A stretch of 64,000 nucleotides of DNA from Methanobacteriota archaeon (GTDB lineage Archaea > Thermoplasmatota > Poseidoniia > Poseidoniales > Thalassarchaeaceae). The stretch spans positions 683 through 64,682 of the forward strand of contig JABIGF010000014.1 of assembly GCA_018650285.1 (NCBI GenBank), written 5' to 3'. Under the pieces are notes generated by a model. The model saw only the letters and a list, made by a program, of their open reading frames with translations, did not search any database and was not told where the DNA came from. A program made the translations under genes and the position numbers. Shown piece by piece: positions 8,201 to 47,500 of the stretch; positions within the stretch are counted from its first letter, which is position 1, and each line of letters begins with the position of its first letter.

Positions 8201-8666
8201 AACCGGCACAGTCATCATTCGTTAGAACAGTCAGGTTACCTCGAATAACTTCTGTAGAACCCCAAATTTGGATATTTCCTTGATAGAAGACTATGTCATC
8301 CTTGCCGTCATCATCAATATCTCCAACTTCAACACCGCCAACATCCGCAATATCGGTAAAACCTGCACGGCGGGTTGCATTGTTTGAAACCCACAAGTCC
8401 GTTCGGTCTTGGTAAGTTCCACCATCATTCCAGAGAATGGACAAGAAATTGCCCATCTCGCTCGCGGTCACGATATCATCATCACCATCACAATCGAAGT
8501 CACCAGTTGCAAGATCCAAAGGATTTCTTGTTACTGGGTACTGTTTCGAATTGCTCGCTGCGACATCCAATACTGCCAACGAAGTTGACAGCACCATTAA
8601 TGCAACCAGTGCGACGGCTTTAACTCGTGCCTTGTTCATGTTCAGTTCAAAGGTATGGCTCGACAT
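2295..8666 (-). CDS. giant (2123 aa) cell-surface protein: N-terminal signal/anchor, FG-GAP/VCBS-type beta-propeller repeats, CARDB-like and PKD-like Ig-fold modules, C-terminal TM anchor and 52-aa cytoplasmic tail
   Basis: One uninterrupted 6.4-kb ORF. N-terminal hydrophobic segment AVALVALMVLSTSLAVL. Repeated Ca-binding FG-GAP signatures (GDFDCDGDDDIV, GDIDDDGKDDIV, DDVNGDGVDDIVV, DVNQDGAIDMVV). CARDB-like strands (VNVTVQNTGLDSISGSVDVDVSV; IDVIVENSGNTVMDFDV). C-terminal TM ILFAGIGALALLVIVIATLLVI followed by RVRGG. Confidence 0.85.
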   Translation of the reverse strand: MSSHTFELNMNKARVKAVALVALMVLSTSLAVLDVAASNSKQYPVTRNPLDLATGDFDCDGDDDIVTASEMGNFLSILWNDGGTYQDRTDLWVSNNATRRAGFTDIADVGGVEVGDIDDDGKDDIVFYQGNIQIWGSTEVIRGNLTVLTNDDCAGSFTEDAVYTMGDIVWNFQIDDVNGDGVDDIVVLELQDMASGTQRLLTYLGGAQRNNAATNHKITTLDNLANKVYADIRLGNFGEAVVGGPIGNDCDDLDAFLHFWPGFNAATGFQDGDWDNVSIVEFECTLDTFAAWNDPNKQHTIKLNSESGEFDIADEDSDGKIDTMAITNLTSVVLQSCAAAPCPSQSNWQQIAISPSIGSFVPASVELQDVNQDGAIDMVVPTTSTITSLTGASGNTVTSYSMDNLEELNTVQIILSDGSGGFHTPQSMPVGRRPTMVLVGQFAGGASSALDLAIGNRDYTYQYSNGALHIDSKGCAFDPLNPQLNGFGCGNLDAISVVQLDNEDLGISGITVSPASFNPDTGRMTIGEGTREVNVTVQNTGLDSISGSVDVDVSVKEITGGADTVVYSNDYETAAAVNCGTGCTWAYADYDNEEFFWHEEVAANHSTSPDGWEADVNPTDYMWAGTWHPNATSSNQMESGYLSNQDEGMILRNIDLTGADAASLELDLFCSAGYSVVHYVNAQGSISGMVIFDDSCNIDVYTDDEGWVPVIYRGGYDLVRLNEYYRNGGSVEYTSSIYHFTGTNYSWMDLSGNDSLDLTPWAGQTIDLRFRFRTGYEGSVGRDNTSRNTQWDGMAFDNLSIKKTITQYGQVQPVSQTLNLNNFAPGDEQTITLNAYFVNGTEYMIEGALSAPTGFANEDSSNDDTRWKMNVLNLYDPAVNEITSFGRGQLYASGDMPIDVIVENSGNTVMDFDVQATVYTAQPNALFTNPCKDVEDFEPSACAYMFGDDSDGVGGIVDDSDASVQNAIVPGNRPLFGSNAYWFGHPDTGYGDDWNESMTLQTIDLRNMGGDFAYLTYDYFAESDYLTDSNGNIVNVNEYAALEISWRKGSQTYEGLVYGSWNDYNENGILGGPNQSCEDIDEDGTFDEVEYIGDHTDQGNYVVWFDSEGIVKSVTLDLTHIVLQNRTGASTQWRTECTSMAGAEVDLTFRFLSNGDGINGQAGFAGFAIDNLTVQEYTFTPDQSYTASVTGIDAREERNVSIATHNFQQGIYRIDVMSIFDNTTAGNNWTNVAEVALGNNVSKVIFEVASVDVTLYRPDVLDCVEDVDYDCVYPIDQALTHQFTVPLSNGVLAGDYNIYLDIVDSSGTTVSSTTSTNSPITLTSHENSQATFQPYNGWTDGETYDLRFYAELVDGTPSGNQRNFTISFADTVDVAILSNPTDQNRLQSVKQDLDSMGLTYTQFRQVDWDTYLASGWLDHYSKVLLPWQTTANVQAGNYYGRLGESATETILKNYMMAGGTIEVHLGPYAEGLDDNLLYNMVVLNRDTSGNQVGHSDLNIADPYHPLLANVSDTAWLGMNNGNYVANAALSTASAGANKLPTPCGGLINAQQGTFHSLLSHSSDSSMHMLATCGVGSGGLIVSTIDVENPSVSEPYGSTSSPLRSNLLAYQVTPYPTELGIAGNGWDLTVNGAAPSQADASGEYADTVYLKSSSIVDFAFTSTLAGLDADWEIRGSTDWDRNQFPPNVVYAHRADDSHQVTFCLIDTNPDGTGCIQDASWDVTLYLHDAAGHTRITHLTLQTNDILADESDPVANVTVDEHPLYPDSLEDHGTKSSGGSDWPVYLAKLSASGDVKVKFDACGSNDPDAMGGESGITTYTWKVFQDYPWNNPSNDYDGHTFERTAAMGCDWTYTFHNQTADPSGFAENPIRIELEVLDRAGRDSEKVKMYFVIVPEDWGDDAPVWEIATPLDGSTQTGDYVWVNGSVLSGSEGGDVAIEAALDSSILNETIDEKVKQLRDGKFADVRNLGDGSAFSLKLKVEDLYDENGSTQTIYLKIVEGDGQTWTLYQQIDINLPPVVVDVDPCVADPTADGCDSGGTDTQGGGGLSNTILFAGIGALALLVIVIATLLVIRVRGGSSDETGFANVEDMDPMEAYVQQLIAQGYPEDTARQYAQQYAGHFGQQ

Positions 8667-8845
8667 ACAAACACAACCGACTTTGTGCCTTCTTATTACT
8701 CCTTTCGTGCGCGTGTGCGAGTGCTGCTTCGTAAAATTGCTTGCAGTACAACGTTTAACATTTGCGAATATGTCGCCACCGAGTGGTTCGCAATACTCCT
8801 AGAATAACCAGAAAGTTGATGATTTACCATCAATGAAAACCAATT

Positions 8846-9478
8846 TCAAGGGGCATCAAGCCAAGCAGGTGAAGGGCCAAATCCTTCTTTAGTTCCGCCA
8901 TAAATTTTCACTAATTTTCCTAGTTGATATTGAGTTTCAAGCCACCCCTCGACAAGGTCATCGTCTAGGTCATGGCGCCCATGAATTGTTTTGATTATCA
9001 CATCGGCCGGTAAACCCATTACACCAAATCTACGAACTGCTATGCGCAATGCCTCGCGCAACCAACCCTCTGCTTCAGGTTCAGTTGAAGGTGACCCTTG
9101 AGGTGGTTTTGGCATCTCATCATATTCATCAAGAATTGCCCTGAGGTCGATGACCGTTGGTGATTCTTCCTTGAAGATTCCAAGTTTGGCCATCTCTTCT
9201 TCAATACTCAACTCGCCGATAATCCTCCTCACTGTGAGAACTTTCGAAGGGTCGGGAGTCGGCCCAGGTAAGGGCTTCTTCCCCCTTTGTGATGTAGTTG
9301 AAGATGAAATGATTGGGTCGCCGTCCGAACCAATTGAAAGTCGCTCAAGCAAACCAATATCAGTCAATTCCAATTGCTCCCTCCAATTTTCAACCCAATT
9401 TCGCTCACCTTCAACTAGGATTTCAATCCCTTCATCGGGTGAGCGGAAGCGGAAGCAGGTGCGGATTTCGTCTACCAC
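8846..9478 (-). CDS. hypothetical soluble protein (210 aa) with two Pro-rich linkers, encoded between the two giant surface-protein genes
   Basis: Clean ORF co-directional with both giants, with no TM segment. Pro-rich stretches are KKPLPGPTPDPSK and MPKPPQGSPSTEPE. The C-terminal part is helical (WLREALRIAVRRFGVMGLPADVIIKTIHG). I recognised no family. Confidence 0.55.
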   Translation of the reverse strand: MVDEIRTCFRFRSPDEGIEILVEGERNWVENWREQLELTDIGLLERLSIGSDGDPIISSSTTSQRGKKPLPGPTPDPSKVLTVRRIIGELSIEEEMAKLGIFKEESPTVIDLRAILDEYDEMPKPPQGSPSTEPEAEGWLREALRIAVRRFGVMGLPADVIIKTIHGRHDLDDDLVEGWLETQYQLGKLVKIYGGTKEGFGPSPAWLDAP

Positions 9479-9559
9479 GAACCAATAGCGAGCGGGGGTG
9501 GTTCTTGAACCAACCGTTGTAAAGTCACATCATATTTGCAAATAAAAACGGAACTTGAC

Positions 9560-12500
9560 TCAGTCAAGGCGGCGGAAAGAACCGCCATCTTCCATTTGCC
9601 ACTTCACACCATCTGCTTGCTTGTAAATAGTCACTCCATCAGCCTGTTCATAGTCTCCGCCACTTGGTAGATTCAGATATGATTCAATAACTTGCCCCCG
9701 GCTAATTGTTGAATCGACTTCACTGTCCGATGATGGTTCGGCCGTTATTTCTTCATCAACTATTTCCCCACCATCATTATTCTCAACTATTGATGGATGA
9801 ATATATGCAGCTTCAACGGATTCAATATCTGAATCAGATGTTTCACCAAATAACGATTCTTCATTATATTCTCCAATAATTGGCACCTTGCGATCACGTA
9901 ATGAGAACAATAAGGTGATAGCTCCGATACCAACTAATAACAGTGCCAAAGCAGAAATTATCCACACAATTGGGCTCTTCCCTGCAACATCTGCATTTGC
10001 ATCATCTTGTGGGTCTTTCTCGTCATCATCAACTACTCCATCAGTTGCGAACCTTGGAGATAGGAGAACTGCATTTGTTTCCCAGCCACCTATTGAGTTA
10101 TTACCCGATGCTATTACCTCTTCAAATCCGATTGAAAGGGAATGAATACCCGATATTGAGTCGCTCTCTTCCACATTACAATAGAATTCAGCCCTGCCAG
10201 CAGGCGTTACCTCTGTTACAGAAGAAGTGCAAACAAACGGCCCAACCGTAGAGTTTGGTGATAATTGAACAAATCCATTAGCTCCCCCACTATTTGTCAC
10301 CGCACAATTGACGAAATGTGTTGAGGTTGTTAAATTACCAATACCTCCATTATATGCGATGCCTATTTGTGTTATTTCTTCATCAAAATAACTGCACGAA
10401 ATATGCCATTCTGGCGCTGGTGGAGGCGTTGCAAAAACCTCCAATGAATCACTGCTTGAAGGAACCACCCAATCAGAAGTTGAAAGAGTCATTGAAATGG
10501 TATGTGCACCAATTGAAGGAATGTCAATTAGATAATTACCAGCCCCACCTGTTGGATAAATTACCTCAATAATTTCTCCATCTAATGATACCTCTAGTTG
10601 CATTGAACAACCAATTGAACACATTGCATCGTATGATACTTCAAACATTCCAGGATGCAAAGTAGTTGGAACAGGTGTCTGAATTGCAAATGTCAAAACC
10701 CCATCAGGTGGCAAGAGAGACATTGTTGCATCTGGCCCGGAAACAAAATCTGGTGCTATGTTCCCATACTCATCAACAACCTCAATCTCGAAATCGTATA
10801 CCCCTGGAGATAATGATGATGTATCAAGTAAATGAGTTCCTCCAAAGAGTGGTGAATAAGATGAACGCGCCCCCCTTATTCCATGAAGCATCGCTTCAGC
10901 CAAAGCATGATGGCCTGCATCTGTGAAATAGCCATTCTCATCTTTCCATTCTGGAGATGTAGGGCCATCATCGGATAGAGGAATAAGTGTCACCCAAGGC
11001 CTTGTTGCGGCAATATCATAGATGACCTTATTTTTCTCTTGGTTTACCTGATATGCTCCATAAGTATGACATCCTGCTGGGCCTGAATTAATGTGGCATA
11101 CATAGTCAGGATCCAAATGTACCACACCAATGTAAATCTGAGCGCCGGTTGATACTAAATTATCAAGTAAGATTGGATACGATGTTTGCCAAACACTTGT
11201 TGATGACGATGAATAATCACGCAATGGAATTAATGTAATGATATCGGGATTTGCTGCAATAATATCATCCTTCTTAGCAATGAAATCTTGAACTGCACCC
11301 CATGAATTTGAAATGTTTGTCAATTCAACTCCAGGCCATGTTTGATTGAGATGATTATGAATCAAACCAATTGTGCTATTATTTGCATTACTAGCCCCTA
11401 AGCCCATTGTTTCAGTTGAGCCAAGAGCAACGTACGAAGAGACGGCTTGAGAATCATTAGCAATGGTTTTTGAAAGTGAGGTTGTCAAAGAATAATCATT
11501 CGGCCCACTAACATGTAATGTTGCCGAAGAGTTGTCTGCCAAAGTAGCAAGCCACTCACCATATACTGCCCATGATTGGCTCGCAGTAGGATTGTTTGTG
11601 ACCTGTAAATTCCTCTCAGAAGGTGCCGTACTATCTATCAAATGAATCATATTTATTTCTGGTTCCGACCAGTTCCCTTCATTTTGATTGATGTCAATAG
11701 CGCGGAAAAGAATATCCCACCAACCAGATTCAGCAGAAGTTAGTGAAACTTTACCCATGTATAATTTTGAAACCTCGTCGTATGAAAGTTGAGTTACAAA
11801 TTCTTCCTCGGAATCAGATGGATTAATGATGTAAGCAAATACATCTAAATCCGTTCTCTCCTCAAGTGCAGATGCTGCGAATGTAATTTCTGTCCCAGCC
11901 TCTACTTCACAAATGGCTACAACTACTGTTTCACAACCACTTACTTGCATAGTTTCAAGTTCTGGGAATACAGGCTTCAGAATTAATGCCTCATACCATG
12001 CACTCACGCCTGAAGGATTACGTACGTTTCCAGCTGCATCCTCCATCCATAACCAAAGAGCCATTGAATCACCATATTCTGATGAATGTTGTCCAGTATC
12101 ATAAAAGCCAACATAGACATTGTGTAAAGTATCCCAAGACATTGTTGCTGTTGAGGCTGGAGGCCATGAAGAAATTACACTTAATCCCTCCATATACCAA
12201 TCAATTGTAGCATCAGATTCATTGCCTAATACGCTGACACGAATTTCGACAAGATCACCAACTCTAGCGTATGTGATTGGTGCGCCATCAACATAGAACG
12301 AAATATCACTAACTTCTGGTATGATGTCATCAATGAAATTAATCCATAAATCACTGAGTTCAATCCCATGGACATCTAAAGCAGAACCGCTAGATATCAC
12401 AGGGAATGTTGCAAAACTCGCTTCTGCCCATCGCCCACTAGTGACATTTACATGCTCATTTATAGACGCCAAAATGCTTCCATTCCCACCTAATCTTTCT

Positions 12501-15373
12501 GTTAATCTATACGGGATAATGACAAAATCTGAGTTGAAAGAACCCATCCAACCACCCGGTGCTGAACAACGAACTTCTAAATTACTCCAAGCAATTCCTG
12601 CTGAACCGTTTGTAGTGAAAGGAACCGTTGGCCAATGCATTTGAAGGAATGAATAATTCAATTCAATCGTTATTCCAATACTAGGGATTTCTGAACTATT
12701 AATAGTCAACAAATTTGTCCCATTAACTCTGAAATCAATATCAGTATCCGAAAAGAACATCGGAGGGATGACATGAATCCAAGCAGAACCTACAGGAGTT
12801 GCATTTGTTGGCACAAATGACCGTAATACGGTTGACCCTGGTGAAGCAATTGAGGTGACATTTCTAACTACACCAAAATCCTTCTGGAAATACCAAAATT
12901 CATTACTACCTGTGGTGTTAGCAATTGCAAGGGAAAAATCGTCAATAGAATTCCAATTAGATGCATTAATATTGATTGATGATACTGTCGGTGTCGTTGT
13001 ATTATTAGTTGTTGAAAGCCACATATTGAATTGTAATAATGCGAATGCTGGCAATACATCCCCTGATAAATTGAATGATAACCACGGTGACCAATTCGAA
13101 CCATCTAGAGAGTATTTGTAAGTCGCAATAATGGATGTATTCAAAGGTTCATTATGAGGTACAGAAACCTTCACTTCAACAGACTTCAGACCAACTTGGC
13201 CAAAGACTGGGCTAGTGAAATTACCATTGTAAATATAGGATACTGAACCTGTCCAACCAGCAAAAGTCCCTGGTCCTGAAAAGCCATTTGAACCTGCAGT
13301 CCCTACTGAACCTGCAACACCTGTACCATAAGGTGCACCACCCAAACCACCGCCACCACCGGCTACACTGATTGCGCCATTGTTAGTCAATTGGCCTGCC
13401 ATTGAAATTAGTAGTATTATTCCACCAGCGCCGCCGCCACCTCCGTGACCGCCATCATACATGAAAAGACATGGATTTCCTGGTGCGCAATTTCCATCTT
13501 CACCATCACCTCCATCTCCACCTTCTGCACTCAAAACCGCATTGCCACCAATGTAAATGATATTTGATAACAAAGCGATAGAACCGCCGCTACCGCCTCC
13601 AGCACCACTGCCACCAGGGCCACTACCACCAGGAGGTGTTGCACCATTGTCACCGCGGCCACCATTTGCAGAAAGTGTACCATTCAAGTAAATTTCACGC
13701 GCAAATAATTCAATGACACCACCGCCATATCCGCCATTAGCATCATTACTTGTTTGACCATTTGAATTAGTAAAAGTAACATTTCCTCCAGAAGAGCCGG
13801 GTTCGGAACCATTTCCGTAATTAGTTCCCCCTGAACCGCCATTTGTGCCACCACCAGAACCACCTTGGGCGCCATGACCTCCACCGCCAGCACCTGGACT
13901 CTTACCGTTAGTGCCACGAGATGTTGAACTTCCTGAACCATAATTCCCTAATACCATCTCATCAGCAATAATAGCAGTACCCAATTCTATTTTGATTACA
14001 TTAGCATAAATTCGCAACGGCCCACCTGAAGATGTTATTTCGCCACAACTTGCAATCCCACATAACAGATGAAGAGTATCATAAGAATGGTTTCCACTCA
14101 TTGATACAGGAGAGGAAATTACAGTATTATTTGTGCCAGCATTGGGGACACTACCGCCACCTGAATTGTTAAGGCGTAATTGATTAGATGTGTCAACTGT
14201 TGTTCCAATCATTGTTGAATTCGGAGCCATTAATTGCATACCATTGGTTGTGTTTGACCACATTTGCAATCCTGATGCAGTGACATTCATCTCGGCCTCA
14301 TCTATGCGTTGTCCTGGCCGATTAGTGATCTCTGTTGACTCATTAAGAGCAGGGTGCAAAATAACTGATGGATCACCATTTGAAAAGGTGGTTGAACTAG
14401 TTGGTGGGGCTCGCATCCATGGATAGTAAATATACGAAGTTTCATTGAATACTGTTGCTGCTGCTGCCTCTTGCAAATACATTGCAAAGGATGCTGAAAT
14501 ACCATTTGGTCGCGTATTCCCTACTGGTGAATCACCCGTAATGGTAGCATGTAATACACAAGTAGTGAGATAACTGCCGTATATTGATGGATGACTACCA
14601 TCAGATGTGTATAGATTGGAGAAAGAATTTCCAGCATTTTCAGGGGTGATACCTGCTGCCAATACATCATTGTATACATGTTTGAAAGCTTCTCCAGCAG
14701 GAGCAATCCAAGCAGGCCTATTCGCTGTTGATACATTTTCTGAATAGAGACGATATCCAGAATTTAAATTCGCCTGCATTGTAAGGAAATCAGGATTTCG
14801 AAAAGCGTTTTGAGAATCACCATCTTTTCTCCCCCAAGTCATCAAGAATATTGTCTCAGCACCACCTGCTGCAACCATTCCATCAAGCACTATTGCGCCA
14901 TTCTTACTCGCCTGCCAATACTGATTACTAGTTGGAAAACTTGGAACTTGACTTTGGTCTTGTAAGACCACCCAGTCCCATTGACCATTGTTAAGAGTCG
15001 TATTCCATTGATGGCCGGCAGTTTGTGCATCTGATGCATGGCCATCTAATTTCATCCCACCAGAAGTTAGACTCTGCACATTTGCTGAATTATCATATTC
15101 TCTCAATGAATCTTGAACCAAAGAGGCTAGATTGTTGGCGGAAGTGTAAGAATTACCAAGAAGCAACACCTCATAACCTTGATTTGCTGAAGAAGGTGAT
15201 TGCATATCTTCATCTAGGTATTCTTCAAACTGACCAATGATGCTCAGAAGAGGTACAAGGACAGTACTGATTATCATCAGCCCAGCAATCAATAGAGCCT
15301 GTTTCGGCTTCACTTGGGCCTTGAGGTCCAACCGCTGCGCCATATCCAAACTAATTGCCGCATCCTTGCTCAT
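9560..15373 (-). CDS. giant (1937 aa) cell-surface protein with SGNH/DUF4886-like regions, a Gly-rich beta-helix-like region, C-terminal TM anchor and a roughly 107-aa acidic cytoplasmic tail
   Basis: One uninterrupted 5.8-kb ORF. N-terminal TM ALLIAGLMIISTVLVPLLSII. GDSL-like block LLLGNSYTSANNL and a later block DENGYFTDAGHHALAEAM. Gly-rich region at residues ~476-706. C-terminal TM IVWIISALALLLVGIGAITLLF followed by SLRDRK and an acidic tail. Confidence 0.85.
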   Translation of the reverse strand: MSKDAAISLDMAQRLDLKAQVKPKQALLIAGLMIISTVLVPLLSIIGQFEEYLDEDMQSPSSANQGYEVLLLGNSYTSANNLASLVQDSLREYDNSANVQSLTSGGMKLDGHASDAQTAGHQWNTTLNNGQWDWVVLQDQSQVPSFPTSNQYWQASKNGAIVLDGMVAAGGAETIFLMTWGRKDGDSQNAFRNPDFLTMQANLNSGYRLYSENVSTANRPAWIAPAGEAFKHVYNDVLAAGITPENAGNSFSNLYTSDGSHPSIYGSYLTTCVLHATITGDSPVGNTRPNGISASFAMYLQEAAAATVFNETSYIYYPWMRAPPTSSTTFSNGDPSVILHPALNESTEITNRPGQRIDEAEMNVTASGLQMWSNTTNGMQLMAPNSTMIGTTVDTSNQLRLNNSGGGSVPNAGTNNTVISSPVSMSGNHSYDTLHLLCGIASCGEITSSGGPLRIYANVIKIELGTAIIADEMVLGNYGSGSSTSRGTNGKSPGAGGGGHGAQGGSGGGTNGGSGGTNYGNGSEPGSSGGNVTFTNSNGQTSNDANGGYGGGVIELFAREIYLNGTLSANGGRGDNGATPPGGSGPGGSGAGGGSGGSIALLSNIIYIGGNAVLSAEGGDGGDGEDGNCAPGNPCLFMYDGGHGGGGGAGGIILLISMAGQLTNNGAISVAGGGGGLGGAPYGTGVAGSVGTAGSNGFSGPGTFAGWTGSVSYIYNGNFTSPVFGQVGLKSVEVKVSVPHNEPLNTSIIATYKYSLDGSNWSPWLSFNLSGDVLPAFALLQFNMWLSTTNNTTTPTVSSININASNWNSIDDFSLAIANTTGSNEFWYFQKDFGVVRNVTSIASPGSTVLRSFVPTNATPVGSAWIHVIPPMFFSDTDIDFRVNGTNLLTINSSEIPSIGITIELNYSFLQMHWPTVPFTTNGSAGIAWSNLEVRCSAPGGWMGSFNSDFVIIPYRLTERLGGNGSILASINEHVNVTSGRWAEASFATFPVISSGSALDVHGIELSDLWINFIDDIIPEVSDISFYVDGAPITYARVGDLVEIRVSVLGNESDATIDWYMEGLSVISSWPPASTATMSWDTLHNVYVGFYDTGQHSSEYGDSMALWLWMEDAAGNVRNPSGVSAWYEALILKPVFPELETMQVSGCETVVVAICEVEAGTEITFAASALEERTDLDVFAYIINPSDSEEEFVTQLSYDEVSKLYMGKVSLTSAESGWWDILFRAIDINQNEGNWSEPEINMIHLIDSTAPSERNLQVTNNPTASQSWAVYGEWLATLADNSSATLHVSGPNDYSLTTSLSKTIANDSQAVSSYVALGSTETMGLGASNANNSTIGLIHNHLNQTWPGVELTNISNSWGAVQDFIAKKDDIIAANPDIITLIPLRDYSSSSTSVWQTSYPILLDNLVSTGAQIYIGVVHLDPDYVCHINSGPAGCHTYGAYQVNQEKNKVIYDIAATRPWVTLIPLSDDGPTSPEWKDENGYFTDAGHHALAEAMLHGIRGARSSYSPLFGGTHLLDTSSLSPGVYDFEIEVVDEYGNIAPDFVSGPDATMSLLPPDGVLTFAIQTPVPTTLHPGMFEVSYDAMCSIGCSMQLEVSLDGEIIEVIYPTGGAGNYLIDIPSIGAHTISMTLSTSDWVVPSSSDSLEVFATPPPAPEWHISCSYFDEEITQIGIAYNGGIGNLTTSTHFVNCAVTNSGGANGFVQLSPNSTVGPFVCTSSVTEVTPAGRAEFYCNVEESDSISGIHSLSIGFEEVIASGNNSIGGWETNAVLLSPRFATDGVVDDDEKDPQDDANADVAGKSPIVWIISALALLLVGIGAITLLFSLRDRKVPIIGEYNEESLFGETSDSDIESVEAAYIHPSIVENNDGGEIVDEEITAEPSSDSEVDSTISRGQVIESYLNLPSGGDYEQADGVTIYKQADGVKWQMEDGGSFRRLD

Positions 15374-30683: not shown

Positions 30684-32435
30684 ATGAGGACTATTTCATT
30701 TTTCATATCAATAATATTCATTACCATGTTATTGTTTTCACAATTACCTGAAGACCATTTGGAATCTAAAGTGTTAACATCAGTGTATTCCAATGAATAT
30801 GATGGATACTATGTTAATTTAACAGATGTCAGCATTGTAGATTTACATTCAGAATTAAATGAATTAATATCAACAAGTCACACAAAAATATACTATGTAG
30901 ATAATTGGGACCATATTGCCGAATTTCATAAATCACCTTATGATGAAGGTAATATCACATTATTTTACACACAAAGGTCACATGATAGTAATGATTCTAG
31001 ATGGTATGATGGGGGTACACTAATTGGAAACGATGATTCTTGGAATCGTGAACATATTTGGCCTAAGTCTCATGGTGATTTCACTACAGATGATATTGTT
31101 GGAACAGATCTTCATAATATAGTCCCTACAGACTATTCAGTTAACTACGATAGGTGGGCAAAGGATTTTGGTGAAGCTAGTACCCCTCACAATGAATGTT
31201 CTGGATGCTATTATGCAGATTATATTTGGGAACCACCAAATATTGTCAAGGGCGATGTGGCGAGAATTTTATTTTACATGGATGTCAGGTATGAGGGTTT
31301 AGGAGATGAACCCTCATTAGAATTAGTTGACAAAACATCAACATATCCTACATCGTCATCTGGAAAAACTGAGTTGGGAAAACTTTGCACGATGTATCAA
31401 TGGCATGTGTTAGACCCTGTAGATAGCAGAGAACTTGAAAGAAATATGGCAATATTTGAGATTCAAGGAAACCGCAACCCATTCATTGATTATTCTGATT
31501 TTGTAATGGATATTTGGGGTGCAGATTGTGATTCAGATTTTGACAATGACGGCCTTTGGGGTATTGAAGATTCGGATGATGATAATGATGGTGTAGATGA
31601 TAACAATGATTCCTGCCTCAGAACAATTATTTCAAACGAAAGTGTGAACGATGACGGTTGTGGCCTTTATGAATTGGATTCTGATGGAGACGGATACACT
31701 GATGATGTTGATGCATTTGTCAATGACATCAGTCAATGGGCTGATTCAGATAGTGATGGATGTGGAGATAATTTAGAGGGGAACAATTCAGACTCACTGC
31801 CTAATGACCCCTCTGAATGTAATGATTCAGATGGAGATGGAATCGGTGACAATTCTGATTCATGCCCTGGTTTTGATGATGCAATTGATGTAGATTCGGA
31901 TAATGTTTCTGATGGTTGTGATGATTTTATTGACAGTGATAATGATGGAGTCATTGATGAAAATGATGATTGTGAAAATACACCATTAGGAATACAAACA
32001 ACACCAAATGGTTGCAACTTAATATTCAATTCAAATAATAACCCCAGTGGTGAATCAAAATTCCCAGTGATTGGAATATCAATCGTATTGTTGATTGTCC
32101 TGATAGCTATTGTATCCATCACAGTTGTTAGATCAAATCCGAATTTACTTCAAAACATATTCAATAAAGACACCACAGAAATTACACCATCAACTAAACC
32201 AGAACCGCCCAAACATTGGTCGGATGATGAGGGGAATAATTTCCGTAAAATGGGAGATAACCCTGTTCAAATTTGGGATGATGATGAAAAAATTTGGAAT
32301 ACTTTTGAAAGCGAAATTAAGAAACCTGAACTGCCAAAACATTGGTCAGATGGTGAATTTAATTATAGACAGATTGCAGGCGGACCAATACAAAAATGGG
32401 ATGATAATAACAAAAAATGGGATTCTGAGGGCTAA
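30684..32435 (+). CDS. membrane-anchored extracellular endonuclease I-family nuclease with TSP3-type Ca-binding repeats and a cytoplasmic tail bearing two WW-like repeats
   Basis: Signal/anchor ISFFISIIFITMLLF. Endonuclease_1 signatures WNREHIWPKSHG, DLHNIVPTDYSVNYDRWAKDFG, KGDVARILFYMDVRYEG and QGNRNPFID. Asp-rich repeats (DSDGDGYTDDVD, DSDGDGIGDNSD). TM VIGISIVLLIVLIAIVSITVV. The ATG at 30684 was chosen because the upstream part of ORF 30474.. overlaps the NFACT gene. Confidence 0.85.
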   Translation: MRTISFFISIIFITMLLFSQLPEDHLESKVLTSVYSNEYDGYYVNLTDVSIVDLHSELNELISTSHTKIYYVDNWDHIAEFHKSPYDEGNITLFYTQRSHDSNDSRWYDGGTLIGNDDSWNREHIWPKSHGDFTTDDIVGTDLHNIVPTDYSVNYDRWAKDFGEASTPHNECSGCYYADYIWEPPNIVKGDVARILFYMDVRYEGLGDEPSLELVDKTSTYPTSSSGKTELGKLCTMYQWHVLDPVDSRELERNMAIFEIQGNRNPFIDYSDFVMDIWGADCDSDFDNDGLWGIEDSDDDNDGVDDNNDSCLRTIISNESVNDDGCGLYELDSDGDGYTDDVDAFVNDISQWADSDSDGCGDNLEGNNSDSLPNDPSECNDSDGDGIGDNSDSCPGFDDAIDVDSDNVSDGCDDFIDSDNDGVIDENDDCENTPLGIQTTPNGCNLIFNSNNNPSGESKFPVIGISIVLLIVLIAIVSITVVRSNPNLLQNIFNKDTTEITPSTKPEPPKHWSDDEGNNFRKMGDNPVQIWDDDEKIWNTFESEIKKPELPKHWSDGEFNYRQIAGGPIQKWDDNNKKWDSEG

Positions 32436-32492
32436 AATAACTATCTAGCACGAGGATTATATTAAAATAATATATAATTACTCCATTTATTC

Positions 32493-35402
32493 ATGCGCGG
32501 AATAGTGAAAGTAGTTTGCCAATTATCATGTCTTATGATATTTGTATTAATGTTGGCACCCTCTGCTACGGCTGAACCAAATGATACAGCGAGTGGAGCG
32601 ACAATTATCGGAACTGGAACTACATATTCATATGTTTGTTGGGATGATGATTGCTCATATGGAATAGACCATTATGATTATTACAAATTTTATGTATATT
32701 ATGGCGATGACGTTACTGTTTATGTTCAAAATACCTGTGACATAGATTATGTTAACGTATATTCAAAAATCTATGCTAATAACGGATGGGAAAGTGACTA
32801 CAGGCTAGGTACCGGCGGATATACATCATGCGGTTCTCCAACTGCTGTAACGTACGACTGGACACATACTGGTACCAATGGATATAGGTATGTGAAAATC
32901 ACGGGCATAGATGACGATGCCTCCTTTAACGGAGATGACCAAGCCAAAGTGAAGATTGTATTATCTATTGATTCCTCTGATCGAGATCGTGATTATGATG
33001 GATACGATGACGATGTTGATGATTGCAAATATGATGATGGTGATTCATATCAAGATAGAAATGGTTGCCCAGATTCTGATAGTGATGGTTGGTCAGATTA
33101 TGGAGATGATTGTCCCAATGATTACTATGAACATTTAGATACAGATGGGGACGGACATTGTGATGGAGACGATGAATTTCCAAATGATGATACCCAATGG
33201 GAGGATTATGATGGCGATAACCATGGAGATAATTCAGATGGAAACCAAGGAGACCACTTCCCCTACGATAACACACAATGGTATGACACAGATGACGATG
33301 GTTATGGTGACAACTCTGATGGAAATAATCCAGACCACTGTAGATTCGTAGAAGGATATAGTTCTCAAGATAGAAACGGTTGTCCTGATACTGATGGGGA
33401 TGGATATAGCAACCCAGATTCTACATTCCCTGCACATCCAATTGGAATTGCTGATGCATTCATATATGATTGGAATGAATGGAATGATACCGATAGTGAC
33501 GATTATGGAGATAATTCAGACCAATGTATAGAAGTTGAAGGAACTAGTGCATTCAAGGTGTTTCATAGAATTTGGAATGGGACATCAGAAGTAGGACCAT
33601 TAGCGATAGAAGTAGTTTCGTGGGACCATTATGGTGGAGATGCTAAAGATTTGACTGATATTATTTATTCACAAATGACTTTAGAAGAACTTGAAGAAGC
33701 AACAGAAATCTTAGAATATCTGAATTTTGATTATACGCCTCGAAACGATAACCCTTACCCTCTTGGTGCTGGTTCAAATTACTACTTCCAACATTACCCT
33801 GGATGTATTGATTCTGATGGAGACGGATTTGAAGATGATACCGATCATTTCCCCCAAGACTCAACTCAATGGGTTGATTCAGATGGCGACGGTTTTGGAG
33901 ACAATGCCATGCATCCAGCACTTGTAAATTATGACCCATCTAATTGCATGAATGAGATAAGAAATGCAATCAATAATGGAGAATATCAAACAAGCGCAAA
34001 AGGAATAGATGTGCTATTATGTGTGGCATGGGGTGCAGAAAATGATTTCATTGCAATTATGGACGAAGATTATGTTTGTGATAACGGCAACACCATTCCT
34101 CAAAGATGGGTTAATGATGAATGGGATGATTGTGGAGATAATTCAGATGAGGGTGTAGATGATTATGATTCTTTATTCAATCCAAACTCTAGATATTTTC
34201 ACCATCAAGATTATGATATCGGCTGGGCCATTCCTGGTGCATTTCAAAGCGATGATTGCCCCTTAGATTCGGGAACAAGCACAATGGATAGATTTGGATG
34301 TCTTGACACCGATGGTGACGGATATAGTGATGCTGACGCAAATTGGGCCATTGAGGATGGGGCTGATGCTTGGCCTATTGATTCTAGCCAATATTCCGAT
34401 ACCGATGGAGATGGGTATGGAGATAATTCAGCAGGTACACAGGGCGACTCTTGTCCGTTTGGGGATAGCACACAATCCTCTACAATAGACAGATGGGGTT
34501 GCACTGATACTGATGGAGATGGGTATAGTGACGCTGACGGCGGATGGTTAGCACACCCTGATGGTTCTGCAGATGCTTTCCCCAACGATGACACACAATG
34601 GCATGACATAGATGGAGACAGGCACGGAGATAACGCTGATGGAACCGATTATGATCATTTTACTATTGACCCTACACAATGGAAAGATGAAGATGGAGAT
34701 GGATTGAATAAATCTGAATCAACATCTCATTGTGGCGATGATGTAAACGGAAATAATCCCGATTTATATCCAAACGACCCTACTCAATGTAAAGATACTG
34801 ATGGGGATGGATTTGGAGATAACTCCGAAGGAACCACAATGCCTGATTTGTTCCCTCTTGATGCCACTCAATGGAGTGATATTGATGGAGATGGTTATGG
34901 AGATAATGGTATTGGAAACAATTCTGATTCATGTATTAGCAACTATGGGACATCAACTGTGGATAGATACGGATGTCCTGACTCAGATTCTGATGGCTAC
35001 AGTGACATGAATGGATTCTTTGCAACTGTCACAGATAAAGCAGGAAAGGGTGATATCGGTTCAATTTTGACTTTGGCTATTGTCCCATTCCTAGCAATTA
35101 TCATTATTACTGTTTTACAAATTTCTAAAAAGAAGAAAAATGATGATGGATTAAATCGAGATGATATCCATGAGGCAATGCAGGATGCTGTTGCATGGGG
35201 TCTTGATGAAGCAGCATATCAATCAACTGCATCTACATCTAGCCAACCACCACGAGCAGAAATGCCACCACCTAGTAATGAAAGGGCTTTACCACCAAAT
35301 TCAAACCAAGGTGATTCTGGAGAATGGATTGAGCAATATGACCAGCAAGGAAATATGTATTACTTCAACCCAGAAACACAAGAATCAAAATGGGAATTAT
35401 AA
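32493..35402 (+). CDS. secreted, membrane-anchored protein: PPC-like N-domain, about 20 thrombospondin-type-3-like Ca-binding repeats, an LDLa-like module, a TM helix, a Pro-rich segment and a C-terminal WW domain
   Basis: Signal peptide ending APSATA/EPND. The EPNDTASGA...HYDYYKFYV pattern matches the pre-peptidase C-terminal domain. The repeats D-x-D-x-DG-x-x-D (DTDGDGYGDNSD and similar) recur throughout. TM ILTLAIVPFLAIIIITVLQI followed by KKKKND. The last 27 aa form a WW domain. Confidence 0.85.
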   Translation: MRGIVKVVCQLSCLMIFVLMLAPSATAEPNDTASGATIIGTGTTYSYVCWDDDCSYGIDHYDYYKFYVYYGDDVTVYVQNTCDIDYVNVYSKIYANNGWESDYRLGTGGYTSCGSPTAVTYDWTHTGTNGYRYVKITGIDDDASFNGDDQAKVKIVLSIDSSDRDRDYDGYDDDVDDCKYDDGDSYQDRNGCPDSDSDGWSDYGDDCPNDYYEHLDTDGDGHCDGDDEFPNDDTQWEDYDGDNHGDNSDGNQGDHFPYDNTQWYDTDDDGYGDNSDGNNPDHCRFVEGYSSQDRNGCPDTDGDGYSNPDSTFPAHPIGIADAFIYDWNEWNDTDSDDYGDNSDQCIEVEGTSAFKVFHRIWNGTSEVGPLAIEVVSWDHYGGDAKDLTDIIYSQMTLEELEEATEILEYLNFDYTPRNDNPYPLGAGSNYYFQHYPGCIDSDGDGFEDDTDHFPQDSTQWVDSDGDGFGDNAMHPALVNYDPSNCMNEIRNAINNGEYQTSAKGIDVLLCVAWGAENDFIAIMDEDYVCDNGNTIPQRWVNDEWDDCGDNSDEGVDDYDSLFNPNSRYFHHQDYDIGWAIPGAFQSDDCPLDSGTSTMDRFGCLDTDGDGYSDADANWAIEDGADAWPIDSSQYSDTDGDGYGDNSAGTQGDSCPFGDSTQSSTIDRWGCTDTDGDGYSDADGGWLAHPDGSADAFPNDDTQWHDIDGDRHGDNADGTDYDHFTIDPTQWKDEDGDGLNKSESTSHCGDDVNGNNPDLYPNDPTQCKDTDGDGFGDNSEGTTMPDLFPLDATQWSDIDGDGYGDNGIGNNSDSCISNYGTSTVDRYGCPDSDSDGYSDMNGFFATVTDKAGKGDIGSILTLAIVPFLAIIIITVLQISKKKKNDDGLNRDDIHEAMQDAVAWGLDEAAYQSTASTSSQPPRAEMPPPSNERALPPNSNQGDSGEWIEQYDQQGNMYYFNPETQESKWEL

Positions 35403-44032: not shown

Positions 44033-44113
44033 CATTCAATTTGATAAATTGGTGAAGCATCTCTGTATCCCTGTGGGGGAAGTGCTAATTGGGACCTCGT
44101 GGCGCTTTGCACT

Positions 44114-47100
44114 ATGAGGAGAGCGTTGGTTGCCGTAATGATGGTTCTATCCATTCTCGCACCTCTAACTAATGCTGATGTGCTAGAAACAAGTAAGATT
44201 ACTGAAACTGAAATTTCTGATGATTCTATCGTCAGTAGTTTTTCTCCCGCGGTAAGGGCTGCTTTTGCCCGAGTCAGTGATATCTCTCAGTATTCTGATG
44301 AAGAATTAGCCTCAGTTGAACAATGGGTCGTGGTAAGTACAACACCATTTGGAGAAGCCGCACCAAATCTTCCTAACACTTGGATTGTTGATGTTGATGG
44401 TGAACAAGCGGTCGCAAAGTTTGCTAGTTTACAATCAGACGGAGTTATTGAAGTCGCATATCCATTGGTGAAGTGGGAGGCTTCAAAAAAATTAATTCCT
44501 AATGATACCAAGTTTTCTGACCAATGGCATCTGCAAAATACTGGGCAAACCAGTGGAACTACTGGTGAAGATGTCAATATCACAGCAGTTTGGGACAATT
44601 ATACTGGATTTGGCACTGTTATCGGAATCGTTGATGATGGATTAGATTGGAATCATCCTGACCTTGATGACTACTATGAAAGCACTCTAGACTACGATTA
44701 CTGTGGCAACGATGGCGACCCATCCCCATCAAATTGGGATGGTCATGGCACTTCTGCTGCTGGCGTAGCCGCTGCAGTAGGGAACAACAGCATTGGAGTC
44801 TCAGGCGCTGCTCCTGAAGCAGGGCTTGCAGGAATACAACTAATCTCTTGTGGCCTTTCAGATACCAAAGAAGCGAATGCCATTACACACCTTCAACAAT
44901 CTATTGATATCTACTCAAATTCATGGGGGCCAAGTGACAATGGACACACATTAGAAGCACCTGGGCCACTAATGCTAGCGGGATTTGAATCAGATGCTTA
45001 CCAAGGTCGTTCAGGCCTAGGCAACATCATCACTTGGGCTGCAGGAAATGGACTCAACAATGATGACAACTCAAATTACGATGGTTATGCCAACAGCCGC
45101 TTCACCATCGCCGTTTCAGCAACCACTCATTACGGCGATAACTCGTGGTATTCTGAGCCTGGCGCAAACATCCTAGTCGCCGCTCCATCAGATGGAGATG
45201 GAGAGGGAATTACTACAACTGACATTGAAGGTTCAGGTGGCTACAACAATGGAGATTACAATGACAACTTTGGTGGCACATCGTCAGCAACGCCTCTTGT
45301 TTCAGGAGTTATTGCCCTCATGTTGGAAGCAAATCCAAACATTACTTGGAGAGATGTACAACACATTCTTGTCAACTCTGCTAGAGTAAATGATGCCAGC
45401 GATTGGTCATGGGAAGTAAACGGTGCTGGCCATGACACCAGCCAAAAATATGGCTTTGGTGTGATTGATGCTGGGGCAGCAATCCACTTGGCAAACAACT
45501 GGACAAATGTTGCAGCAGAAGCAAATGACACCAGTGGTGTTCAAACTGCCAACTTAGCAATTCCTGATGGGCCAAGTTCACCTGTCACCGAAACGTTTCA
45601 AATGACAACGGACCTGCAACTAGAATCTGTTGATGTCATAGTTGATATTGATCACAACAACCGCGGCGATTTAGAAATCAAATTGATTTCACCATCAGGA
45701 ACAGAATCTGTTCTAGCAGCTCAACACAATGATAATGGTAACGACTACAATAATTGGCTTTTCTCATCAGTACAATTTTGGGATGAAAGTAGTGTAGGAA
45801 ATTGGACATTAAGTCTTGATGATAGAAGTAGTGGCACAACAGGAACACTATACGACTGGGAACTCATTATCCATGGAGTTGAAATTAACCGCGATAGTGA
45901 TTTAGACGGACTTCTAGATGATGACGAAACTGCAAATTACTCTACAGACCCATACGACAACGATACTGACGATGATTTCCTAGACGACGGTTTGGAAGTA
46001 CTCAACTACTCTACAGACCCACTTAACCCAGACAGCGATGGTGATGGCTTGCTCGATGGTGTAGAAGTTTTCGTCAACGGAACTGACCCGCTAAACAGTG
46101 ATACTGATGGGGATGGAATGTCTGACGGTTTTGAAGTCAATACTGCCTTTTCAAATCCACTTGTCTATGACAATGACACCGATTCTGATGGATGGTATTG
46201 GTTCAATGATTGTAACGATAGTGACCCATTAATTCGGCCCGATATCAATGAATCATTGAACGGAATTGATGATGATTGTGACCTCTATATTGATGAGGGT
46301 TTCAACGCCACCGATAGCGATGTTGACCAACTCGTAGATTGGCAAGAATATCACATTTACGGCACAAATCGAACCCTTTGGGATACTGATGGAGACGGAC
46401 TTTCAGATGGAGATGAGGTGTTAAATCACGGTAGCAATCCACTAATTTTTGATAATGATTCGGACTTAGATGGATGGTATTGGTTTGATGATTGTGATGA
46501 TGAAAATTTCTCAATGAATCCTGGACAAGTTGAGTTACTTGATGGGCTTGACAACGATTGTGACGATGCAATTGACGAGGATTTCTATGGACAAGATAGT
46601 GATGGAGACGGACTATTTGACTTGGACGAATACAACCTGATAGGAACAGATCCATTTCACAATGATACCGACCGTGATGGCATTACTGATGGAGATGAGT
46701 TACTTATCACCCATACCGACCCTCTCTCCCCAGACTTAGATGAAGATGGTGATGGATTCCGCTGGTTCGATGACTGCGATGACAACAACTCTGCGCGCTC
46801 GCCTGACGTCAATGAAACTTGGAATTGGATTGATGATGACTGTGATGGGGAAATAGACAACGATGTCAACCGCTCCGCACATCTAGTATTGTACCCTAAA
46901 GGCAATGCGCAAGTCCTTGGCATCAATCCAACAAGTGGTGAAATCTCTCTCAATACCAACAATTCGGCATTTAGTTTAGATATTGAAAATTACAATGTTA
47001 ATTGGGAAATTTATGACTTAATTTCAAACGGTACAATCACTTGGACAATTACAGACAATGATGGCGCAACCACCCAATTAGATGGAGTTGAAACATACGC

Positions 47101-47500
47101 TGTAGAAGATGTTGATTGTAGTGAGCCGTTTGGCTATAATATACTAGAAAACAAAATTTGCCCACATCACAACACAACCATTGGACATTGGTCTATATTA
47201 CTACAAATAATCGATGGGGATGAGGTGTTAAGCTGGAGTTTTACCTACTCCTACTTTGTCTGGAACCCACCAATCGTTGACCCTAACGATGGCAACGGAG
47301 ATGGTTCACAAGATGGCACTAATGGAGGCGATAATGATGGAGGTTCTGGAGCCCTTAGCGGCGGACCTGTGATTCAATCTGAAATTGTGATTGGGCTTGC
47401 CGCACTGCTTGTTCTCTCTATTCTAGTGCTATTATTTATGCGAAGAAAGCCACCTGTTAGTCCGCCAAAATTGATTAAACCTGACTTCTATCAATTTTGA
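44114..47500 (+). CDS. kexin-like subtilisin (S8) protease with P-domain, TSP3-type repeats, three Cys-containing MopE-like repeats, TM anchor and a short Pro-rich tail
   Basis: Catalytic triad motifs GIVDDGLDWNHPDL (D), DGHGTSAAGVAAA (H) and GGTSSATPLVSGVIALM (S). P-domain DVIVDIDHNNRGDLEIKLISPSGTESVL...WTLSLDD. Repeats CNDSDPLIRPDINESLNGIDDDCDLYIDEG (x3). TM IVIGLAALLVLSILVLLF. The ATG at 44114 is preferred over the GTG at 44099. Confidence 0.9.
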   Translation: MRRALVAVMMVLSILAPLTNADVLETSKITETEISDDSIVSSFSPAVRAAFARVSDISQYSDEELASVEQWVVVSTTPFGEAAPNLPNTWIVDVDGEQAVAKFASLQSDGVIEVAYPLVKWEASKKLIPNDTKFSDQWHLQNTGQTSGTTGEDVNITAVWDNYTGFGTVIGIVDDGLDWNHPDLDDYYESTLDYDYCGNDGDPSPSNWDGHGTSAAGVAAAVGNNSIGVSGAAPEAGLAGIQLISCGLSDTKEANAITHLQQSIDIYSNSWGPSDNGHTLEAPGPLMLAGFESDAYQGRSGLGNIITWAAGNGLNNDDNSNYDGYANSRFTIAVSATTHYGDNSWYSEPGANILVAAPSDGDGEGITTTDIEGSGGYNNGDYNDNFGGTSSATPLVSGVIALMLEANPNITWRDVQHILVNSARVNDASDWSWEVNGAGHDTSQKYGFGVIDAGAAIHLANNWTNVAAEANDTSGVQTANLAIPDGPSSPVTETFQMTTDLQLESVDVIVDIDHNNRGDLEIKLISPSGTESVLAAQHNDNGNDYNNWLFSSVQFWDESSVGNWTLSLDDRSSGTTGTLYDWELIIHGVEINRDSDLDGLLDDDETANYSTDPYDNDTDDDFLDDGLEVLNYSTDPLNPDSDGDGLLDGVEVFVNGTDPLNSDTDGDGMSDGFEVNTAFSNPLVYDNDTDSDGWYWFNDCNDSDPLIRPDINESLNGIDDDCDLYIDEGFNATDSDVDQLVDWQEYHIYGTNRTLWDTDGDGLSDGDEVLNHGSNPLIFDNDSDLDGWYWFDDCDDENFSMNPGQVELLDGLDNDCDDAIDEDFYGQDSDGDGLFDLDEYNLIGTDPFHNDTDRDGITDGDELLITHTDPLSPDLDEDGDGFRWFDDCDDNNSARSPDVNETWNWIDDDCDGEIDNDVNRSAHLVLYPKGNAQVLGINPTSGEISLNTNNSAFSLDIENYNVNWEIYDLISNGTITWTITDNDGATTQLDGVETYAVEDVDCSEPFGYNILENKICPHHNTTIGHWSILLQIIDGDEVLSWSFTYSYFVWNPPIVDPNDGNGDGSQDGTNGGDNDGGSGALSGGPVIQSEIVIGLAALLVLSILVLLFMRRKPPVSPPKLIKPDFYQF

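Follow-up and report, generated by a model that had tools for sequence, protein, structure and literature searches.

WW domains, which bind proline-rich or phospho-Ser/Thr-Pro peptides, belong to the most thoroughly studied interaction modules of eukaryotes. A 2025 study states that only WW domains of eukaryotic proteins have been characterised to date (PMC12331936). It also notes that many of the WW labels assigned automatically to bacterial proteins refer to helical segments, and it reports a WW-like loop, EL4, in the protein O-mannosyltransferase of Mycobacterium tuberculosis (MtPMT). A literature search for papers that connect WW domains to archaea, whether Marine Group II, Asgard or others, returned no relevant paper. 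Among the Poseidoniales (Marine Group II), thrombospondin-type genes are widespread and their products are putative adhesion factors (Rinke et al. 2019, PMC6461757). Here we describe a protein of this group that ends in a WW domain. Its gene was found in a stretch of 64,000 nucleotides (hereafter the window) of contig JABIGF010000014.1, from the Methanobacteriota archaeon assembly GCA_018650285.1. It occupies positions 32493..35402 (+) in the list of open reading frames (ORFs) and encodes a predicted type I membrane protein of 969 amino acids, with full-length orthologues on three other contigs (L008, L009 and L010) and a diverged homologue, P0006, on a fourth (L007). A WW domain in this host and in this architecture, the inner tail of a type I archaeal surface protein, had not been described before.

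The segment at 35319..35399 (+) translates as GEWIEQYDQQGNMYYFNPETQESKWEL, with a TAA stop codon at 35400-35402, and corresponds to the last 27 residues (943-969). The initial annotation of the window had called it a textbook WW domain, and translation confirmed its position at the end of the protein as well as the 21 residues between the signature tryptophans, W945 and W967. WW domains are recognised by a spacing of 20-22 residues between these tryptophans and by an aromatic block followed by Asn in strand 2, which reads M-Y-Y-F-N in the window protein. Both tryptophans and the strand-2 block are invariant across all homologues. The Pro of the W-x-x-P motif, located three residues past the second Trp, is absent; the window protein stops two residues after W967, and it terminates in ...KWEL-stop, as do the proteins of L008, L009 and L010. 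The diverged homologue P0006 retains this Pro (SWDPPQN). The W-x-x-P Pro packs on the first Trp and stabilises the WW fold, and a Pfam call is possible without it. The word textbook, which agrees with the profile match, the Trp spacing and the predicted fold, was therefore slightly generous with respect to the missing C-terminal Pro. The match to human Pin1, said to run position for position, did not hold, as the quoted Pin1 string has 22 residues between the tryptophans and a longer loop 1.

The search with the Pfam WW profile (PF00397) that the initial annotation had proposed gave 30.8 bits (E=3.1e-7) for the whole protein and 37.6 bits (E=2.3e-9) for its last 52 amino acids, both above Pfam's own gathering cut-off of 26.9 bits, with a match that spans profile positions 4-29 of 31. 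Two homologues, P0006 and the deletion-fusion protein P0001 discussed below, already carry a precomputed Pfam WW label from public pipelines; the WW match itself is not hidden in public annotation, only undescribed. When phmmer was run against all PDB sequences, the matches were mainly WW domains, the best being the tandem WW of FBP11/PRPF40A (E=1.2e-7), followed by those of yeast Prp40 (E=1.6e-6), WBP4/FBP21 (E=4.9e-6) and TCERG1/FBP28. The E-values of these best sequence matches range from 1e-7 to 2e-3, and the identities from 36 to 46%. A WW profile built in this analysis from 300 WW segments matched the 969-residue protein as the sole one among the 40 ORFs of the window, and it located exactly one site per archaeal locus in a six-frame translation of about 185 kb.

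The structure of the tail was predicted with AlphaFold2 (AF2), which was run on residues 842-969 as a single sequence with no alignment. Strands were placed at 946-949, 955-959 and 964-967, with predicted local distance difference test (pLDDT) values of 81-89. The result is the three-stranded antiparallel sheet anticipated in the initial annotation, neither disordered nor helical. The 50 PDB matches listed by Foldseek are essentially all solved WW domains, and many of them superimpose with a root-mean-square deviation of 0.9-2.0 Å over 23-28 columns, at E-values that are non-significant for so short a domain. They include FBP11 WW1 with bound APPTPPPLPP (1ywi) and the HYPB poly-Pro-WW construct (2mdi). 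The WW domain encoded by the final 27 codons of the gene is genuine, and it is homologous to those of eukaryotes.

A hydropathy scan detected two hydrophobic segments only, residues 1-27 and 858-877. The first one (MRGIVKVVCQLSCLMIFVLMLAPSATA, followed by EP; 32493..32573, +) is a predicted signal peptide with a hydropathy peak and an AxA motif, and the second one (ILTLAIVPFLAIIIITVLQI; 35064..35123, +) is a predicted transmembrane (TM) helix, with a Kyte-Doolittle maximum of 2.8, spanned by a helix at residues 14-42 of the AF2 fragment. The 830 residues between them (28-857; 32574..35063, +), characterised by motif and composition counts, form the ectodomain. The SKKKKND sequence directly follows the TM helix and opens a cytoplasmic tail of 92 residues. 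Together with a conserved helix (DDIHEAMQDAVAWGLDEAAY) it makes up residues 878-909 (35124..35219, +), of which AF2 modelled 889-903 (fragment residues 48-62) as helical and in which EAMQDAVAWG is invariant across all homologues. Residues 910-942 (35220..35318, +) are a Pro-rich linker that contains QPPRAEMPPPSNERALPPNSNQGDS and is predicted to be disordered, with pLDDT values of 50-59. The ectodomain holds 24 of the 26 Cys residues of the protein, the other two being in the signal peptide and none in the tail. Because a signal peptide, a Cys-rich ectodomain and a single TM helix are followed by four Lys, the protein has the features of a type I (N-out, C-in) single-pass protein, with the WW domain predicted on the cytoplasmic side. 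Whether the N-terminal segment is cleaved or serves as an anchor, one further TM helix follows, so that in either case the C-terminus would be cytoplasmic, in agreement with the Lys cluster. The initial annotation had placed the C-terminus inside on the strength of the only C-terminal TM helix and its Lys stop-transfer stretch; both were seen in the hydropathy scan, and the AxA motif of the putative signal peptide and the distribution of Cys point to the same topology.

The ectodomain had been called Ca-binding and the protein an adhesin. Asp accounts for 18% of the protein, the net charge of the ectodomain is about -165, and twelve DxDxDGxxD motifs, resembling those of thrombospondin type-3 repeats, were counted in it. 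These motifs and the published view of the Poseidoniales genes favour that description. Against it, the Pfam profiles for TSP3 repeats (PF02412 and PF18884) found no match at E<=10 in the whole protein or at E<=1 in four fragments of it, whereas the S8 protease encoded in the same window does match TSP3_bac. The apparent thrombospondin-3 resemblance of the ectodomain is at the motif level only. The thrombospondin-type proteins reported before from Poseidoniales (PMC6461757) belong to the same group of archaea and have the same type of D-rich DxDxDG ectodomain; neither cytoplasmic tails nor a WW domain were described there. A separate observation concerns residues 525-553 (window 34065-34151, CDNGNTIPQRWVNDEWDDCGDNSDE), which resemble an LDL-receptor-A module. 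The Ldl_recept_a profile scored 18.3-21.8 bits, with a cut-off of 24.1, and the segment is also conserved in P0006. It would be a second mainly eukaryotic-type module in the same protein.

A scan for the tail pattern in one genome per GTDB species identified two of 185,579 species. One is represented by L008, a 162-kb contig of a metagenome-assembled genome (MAG) named 'uncultured Candidatus Poseidoniales archaeon', and the other by L009, from the MAG 'Methanobacteriota archaeon BH15'. Both encode full-length orthologues, of 980 and 971 amino acids, in the same neighbourhood as that of the window, with genes for an NFACT-family protein and a membrane Endonuclease I upstream and genes for an archaeal-type PurP (DUF1246/DUF1297) and a tryptophan dioxygenase downstream. 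Two further contigs were recovered from a scan of JGI metagenomes, one with a full-length copy (L010) and the other with a deletion allele (L011), and P0006 is encoded on one diverged ENA contig; a scan of a viral contig collection found no relative. P0006 has 847 amino acids, is 46% identical to the window protein and consists, in this order, of a signal peptide, 13 DxDxDG motifs, a TM helix, RKKK, the EAMQDAVAWG helix, a Pro-rich linker and the WW domain.

An exhaustive phmmer search of the tail against 1.84 billion representatives produced 250 matches. The 150 that were listed are mostly multi-WW eukaryote-like proteins, with a few Bacteroidota-like repeat proteins that have weak summed matches, and among those listed the same architecture is present only in P0006. 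Single-WW proteins at <=50% identity fall below the E-value limits of so large a search, and more distant archaeal WW tails may have escaped it. A word-index protein search with the TM helix and the tail returned only P0001, and an exact look-up showed that the window protein is not on record. The survey for TM-plus-WW tails that the initial annotation had asked for revealed a very narrow family and no general feature of Poseidoniales. The same gene and synteny are nevertheless present in at least five independent assemblies. Because both recur in independent Poseidoniales assemblies, the gene is genuinely archaeal and no chimera. The archaeal host assumed for it is also the one named for the MAGs of L008 and L009.

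Selection on the tail was assessed by comparing the window with L007. In the WW domain the proportions of synonymous (pS) and non-synonymous (pN) differences were 0.61 and 0.10, giving a ratio of non-synonymous to synonymous rates (dN/dS) of 0.086, while the dN/dS values were 0.15 for the juxtamembrane helix and 0.43 for the Pro-rich linker. Of the 27 WW residues, 24 are identical in P0006, whereas the whole proteins share only the 46% identity given above. The WW domain is under purifying selection. The closer orthologues (L008-L010) show zero synonymous changes in the tail. The DNA identity to L008 and L009 along the gene (window 32300-35400) is mosaic, ranging from 0.61 at the 5' end to 0.98 in places, and the entire 3' half is 91-98% identical to the orthologues. 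A hidden nucleotide-level element in the tail was considered and rejected, as the high identity extends over the whole 3' half and the gene is mosaic. The archaeal WW call survived the profile, structure-prediction, synteny and selection tests.

An in-frame deletion allele of 4134 bp is present in the same population, with breakpoints at window positions 31006-31011 and 35140-35145 (L001-L006 and L011) that share ATGATG microhomology. Up to 31011 the sequence of L001 agrees with the window at 100% identity, and from 35140 onwards at 99.7%. The deletion removes the ectodomain and the TM helix of both the WW protein and the nuclease encoded upstream, and it joins the N-terminal ~95 residues of the nuclease with the WW tail, yielding the 180-residue protein P0001. 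This allele was found on 12 contigs from several samples and on L011, and it outnumbers the contigs with the full-length gene. Where the window and its own deletion allele differ, the few changes are concentrated in the Pro-rich linker, and there the deletion allele resembles L009. The mosaic DNA identity and the linker differences shared with L009 suggest recombination among alleles of the WW surface-protein gene.

Among the characterised WW domains, the FBP11-type ones (FBP11/PRPF40A, Prp40, FBP21/WBP4 and FBP28/TCERG1) are the closest in sequence; these domains recognise poly-proline motifs (PPLP, PPR, PPPP). They share with the window WW a short D-x-G loop 1, an aromatic triplet (YYF in the window, YYY in the FBP11 type), the N-x-E-T-x-x-S-x-W hairpin and the three-stranded fold, which is a predicted one in the archaeal protein. 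However, the FBP11-type proteins act in the nucleus as soluble splicing or transcription factors and usually contain tandem WW and FF domains, whereas the window protein has a single WW domain at the end of a membrane-protein tail, and the W-x-x-P Pro is another difference. The window WW is also without the long Arg/Ser-rich loop of Pin1, and a role as a reader of phospho-Ser-Pro seems unlikely. In MtPMT, as in the window protein, an element for binding Pro-rich peptides of the WW type would be found in a prokaryotic protein, binding by the archaeal WW being suggested by its sequence. EL4, however, is a WW-like loop of imperfect form that lies on the periplasmic side of an enzyme, while the archaeal WW passes the Pfam threshold and is terminal and, by prediction, cytoplasmic. 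The Nedd4 family and the tails of eukaryotic membrane proteins provide another likeness, a contact between a WW domain and a Pro motif on the inner side of the membrane, in which the tail of a surface protein takes part; for the archaeal protein such binding is a proposal. The polarity is reversed, since in eukaryotes the membrane protein carries PPxY and the soluble ligase the WW domain, whereas in the archaeon the membrane protein carries the WW domain. To our knowledge, no Nedd4-like partner is known in archaea of the Poseidoniales group.

A PPP(S/P) tract lies 11-24 residues upstream of the WW domain in the same tail. In the window, L008, L009, L010 and the deletion allele MPPPSNERALPP is invariant and the residues that precede it vary. 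P0006 has SPPPPK (SPPPPKVQGG) at the equivalent place of a linker that is otherwise changed; the tract is thus kept. The corresponding poly-Pro peptides of the linkers are EMPPPSNERALPPN in the window protein and TSPPPPKVQG in P0006. HYPB/SETD2 (2mdc, 2mdi) has a poly-Pro tract immediately N-terminal to its WW domain, an arrangement like that of the window tail. This stretch reportedly binds the WW domain that follows it, which would be a precedent for auto-inhibition in cis. The two systems differ in that intramolecular binding was shown for HYPB/SETD2 and is only proposed for the archaeal protein, and in that the window linker, with its 11-24 residues, is longer. Other Pro motifs are found in the tails of proteins encoded nearby, KPEPPKHW and KPELPKHW (within TKPEPPKHW and KKPELPKHW) in the adjacent nuclease and KPPVSPPK in the S8 protease (RRKPPVSPPKLIK).

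We propose that the WW domain probably binds a poly-proline peptide of the PPLP/PPPP/PPR type by means of its YYF block and second Trp. The preferred ligand would be the conserved PPP(S/P) tract of its own tail, self-recognition being favoured because the tract just upstream is conserved and the arrangement recalls that of HYPB/SETD2. Binding in cis might produce a closed or auto-inhibited tail, by analogy with HYPB/SETD2, while binding in trans between neighbouring molecules could chain the tails and cluster the surface protein into patches. The nuclease motifs KPEPPKHW/KPELPKHW and the S8 protease motif KPPVSPPK would be secondary candidates. As a small and easily expressed domain, the archaeal WW is suited to asking whether recognition of Pro motifs operates in the archaeal cytoplasm, and it offers a handle on the organisation of surface proteins in the abundant, uncultured Marine Group II archaea.

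The best single-domain matches to the WW domain are short proteins of the type W.E.YD..GN.YYFN..T.ESSW..P, such as AWIEAYDESGNLYYFNTETEESSWDPP (34 bits). They come from contigs with sparse, short and Pfam-less gene calls, one of which has WW segments in two frames, and these contigs look eukaryotic, as if eukaryotic DNA had passed through a prokaryotic gene caller. The top matches that carry an organism name are from the diatoms Cylindrotheca closterium and C. fusiformis and the bolidophyte Triparma laevis. Because of the narrow archaeal distribution and of these named algal matches, the most economical explanation is capture from a eukaryote; the WW domain was most probably acquired from a planktonic eukaryote and fused to the tail of an existing archaeal surface protein. 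It would be a probable example of domain capture from co-occurring phytoplankton.

Taken as a whole, the explanation that combines a cytoplasmic WW domain, a poly-Pro ligand, preferably the tract of its own tail, and capture from a planktonic eukaryote has, in our judgement, a slightly better than even chance of being correct. Several points weigh against it. Because the C-terminal Pro that buttresses the first Trp is missing, the stability of the isolated window WW may be marginal. In the AF2 model, the linker is not confidently placed on the WW domain. The suggested poly-Pro class was assigned from sequence neighbours and not from specificity-determining residues. With regard to the origin, the ranking of the eukaryotic matches is inflated by multi-WW proteins, and the direction of transfer is the one that the matches suggest. 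In addition, the gene is dispensable, since the deletion allele is common in the same population; this and the narrow distribution limit the general importance of the system. A wider version of the proposal is more speculative, and we put it forward tentatively. Surface proteins of Poseidoniales might be organised from the inner side of the membrane by a WW/poly-Pro interaction of eukaryotic origin, in which the WW tail would bind the tracts of its own kind or of the nuclease and so form a patch of Ca-repeat adhesin and DNase. If true, archaea would have their first example of a functional network of protein interactions based on WW domains, and a signalling module would have passed from an alga to an archaeon.

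The initial annotation favoured a different partner, an undescribed intracellular one. In this reading the WW domain would recruit a separate soluble cytoplasmic Pro-rich protein and so couple the surface protein to a scaffold, to signalling or to turnover. WW domains usually act in this way, the one described here is intact and subject to purifying selection, and several proteins of the window contain PxPP or PPP motifs. However, no candidate stands out among the 40 ORFs of these 64 kb of genome, where most Pro motifs sit in enzymes or extracellular regions, and the conserved poly-Pro tract of the same tail supplies a ligand without another protein. We regard a separate partner as possible but doubtful. 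A WW domain without any present function, a eukaryote-derived passenger that happened to be captured at the 3' end of a variable surface-protein gene, would agree with the very narrow taxonomic distribution, with the deletion of the gene in many members of the same population and with the missing C-terminal Pro of the window allele. It is difficult to reconcile with a dN/dS of 0.086 at a pS of 0.61 next to a linker that evolves about five times faster at non-synonymous sites, and with a WW domain so much better conserved in P0006 than the rest of the protein; we consider it improbable.

The last group of explanations, that the segment is not a WW homologue or is not cytoplasmic, is largely refuted, and we give it very little probability. 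A convergent hairpin of the cell-wall or choline-binding type is suggested by weak PDB matches to the repeat hairpins of SleB and TcdB (E 0.04-0.15), but the WW matches of the same phmmer search are better by five to six orders of magnitude. A cleaved C-terminal sorting signal was also considered, since the C-terminal TM helix with a basic patch behind it is reminiscent of archaeosortase signals. It was rejected: no NCBIfam match to an archaeosortase/PGF-CTERM-type sorting signal was obtained at E<=1, and the tail has 92 residues, structured according to AF2 and conserved, as opposed to the few residues past the helix of a sorting signal. A chimera with eukaryotic DNA is contradicted by independent assemblies of different samples, which share the junction and the archaeal genes that flank it. 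In comparison with these alternatives, a cytoplasmic WW domain that recognises a poly-Pro tract of its own tail remains the explanation that we favour.

The gene located immediately upstream (30684..32435, +) encodes a membrane-anchored Endonuclease I (Pfam Endonuclease_1, E=5.7e-34) with a D-rich stalk, a TM helix and a cytoplasmic tail. The nuclease and WW genes are adjacent, on the same strand and 27-91 bp apart in the window, L007, L008 and L009. The nuclease tail of the window contains two W-rich repeats of the form P[EK]xPKHWSD..G.N[FY]RK...P[VI]Q.W......W (32211..32423, +), which AF2 modelled as four plus four strands with pLDDT values of 70-82, and that of L007 contains one. These repeats were examined as further WW domains and rejected, with no Pfam match and a probability below 1% in an hhalign comparison with the WW profile; the WW profile built here did not report them at E<=100. 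In the AF2 model each repeat is a four-stranded beta meander, unlike the three-stranded WW fold, and the Foldseek matches were propeller blades, at non-significant levels.

Three other giant surface proteins of the window have a C-terminal TM helix and a cytoplasmic tail, each tail with a short module of its own. One of 1937 amino acids (9560-15373, -) ends in DYEQADGVTIYKQADGVKWQMEDGGSFRRLD, which has the look of beta hairpins, and one of 2123 amino acids (2295-8666, -) ends in MEAYVQQLIAQGYPEDTARQYAQQYAGHF, which looks helical. The S8 protease (44099-47500, +) has a Pro-rich tail, RRKPPVSPPKLIKPDFYQF. These archaeal surface proteins may in general possess structured tails in the cytoplasm. 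Downstream of the WW gene, L009 carries two extra genes (6484-9832), encoding proteins of 745 and 353 amino acids with N-terminal hydrophobic segments, between the WW gene and purP. Because of this insertion, the site between the two genes behaves as a variable island.

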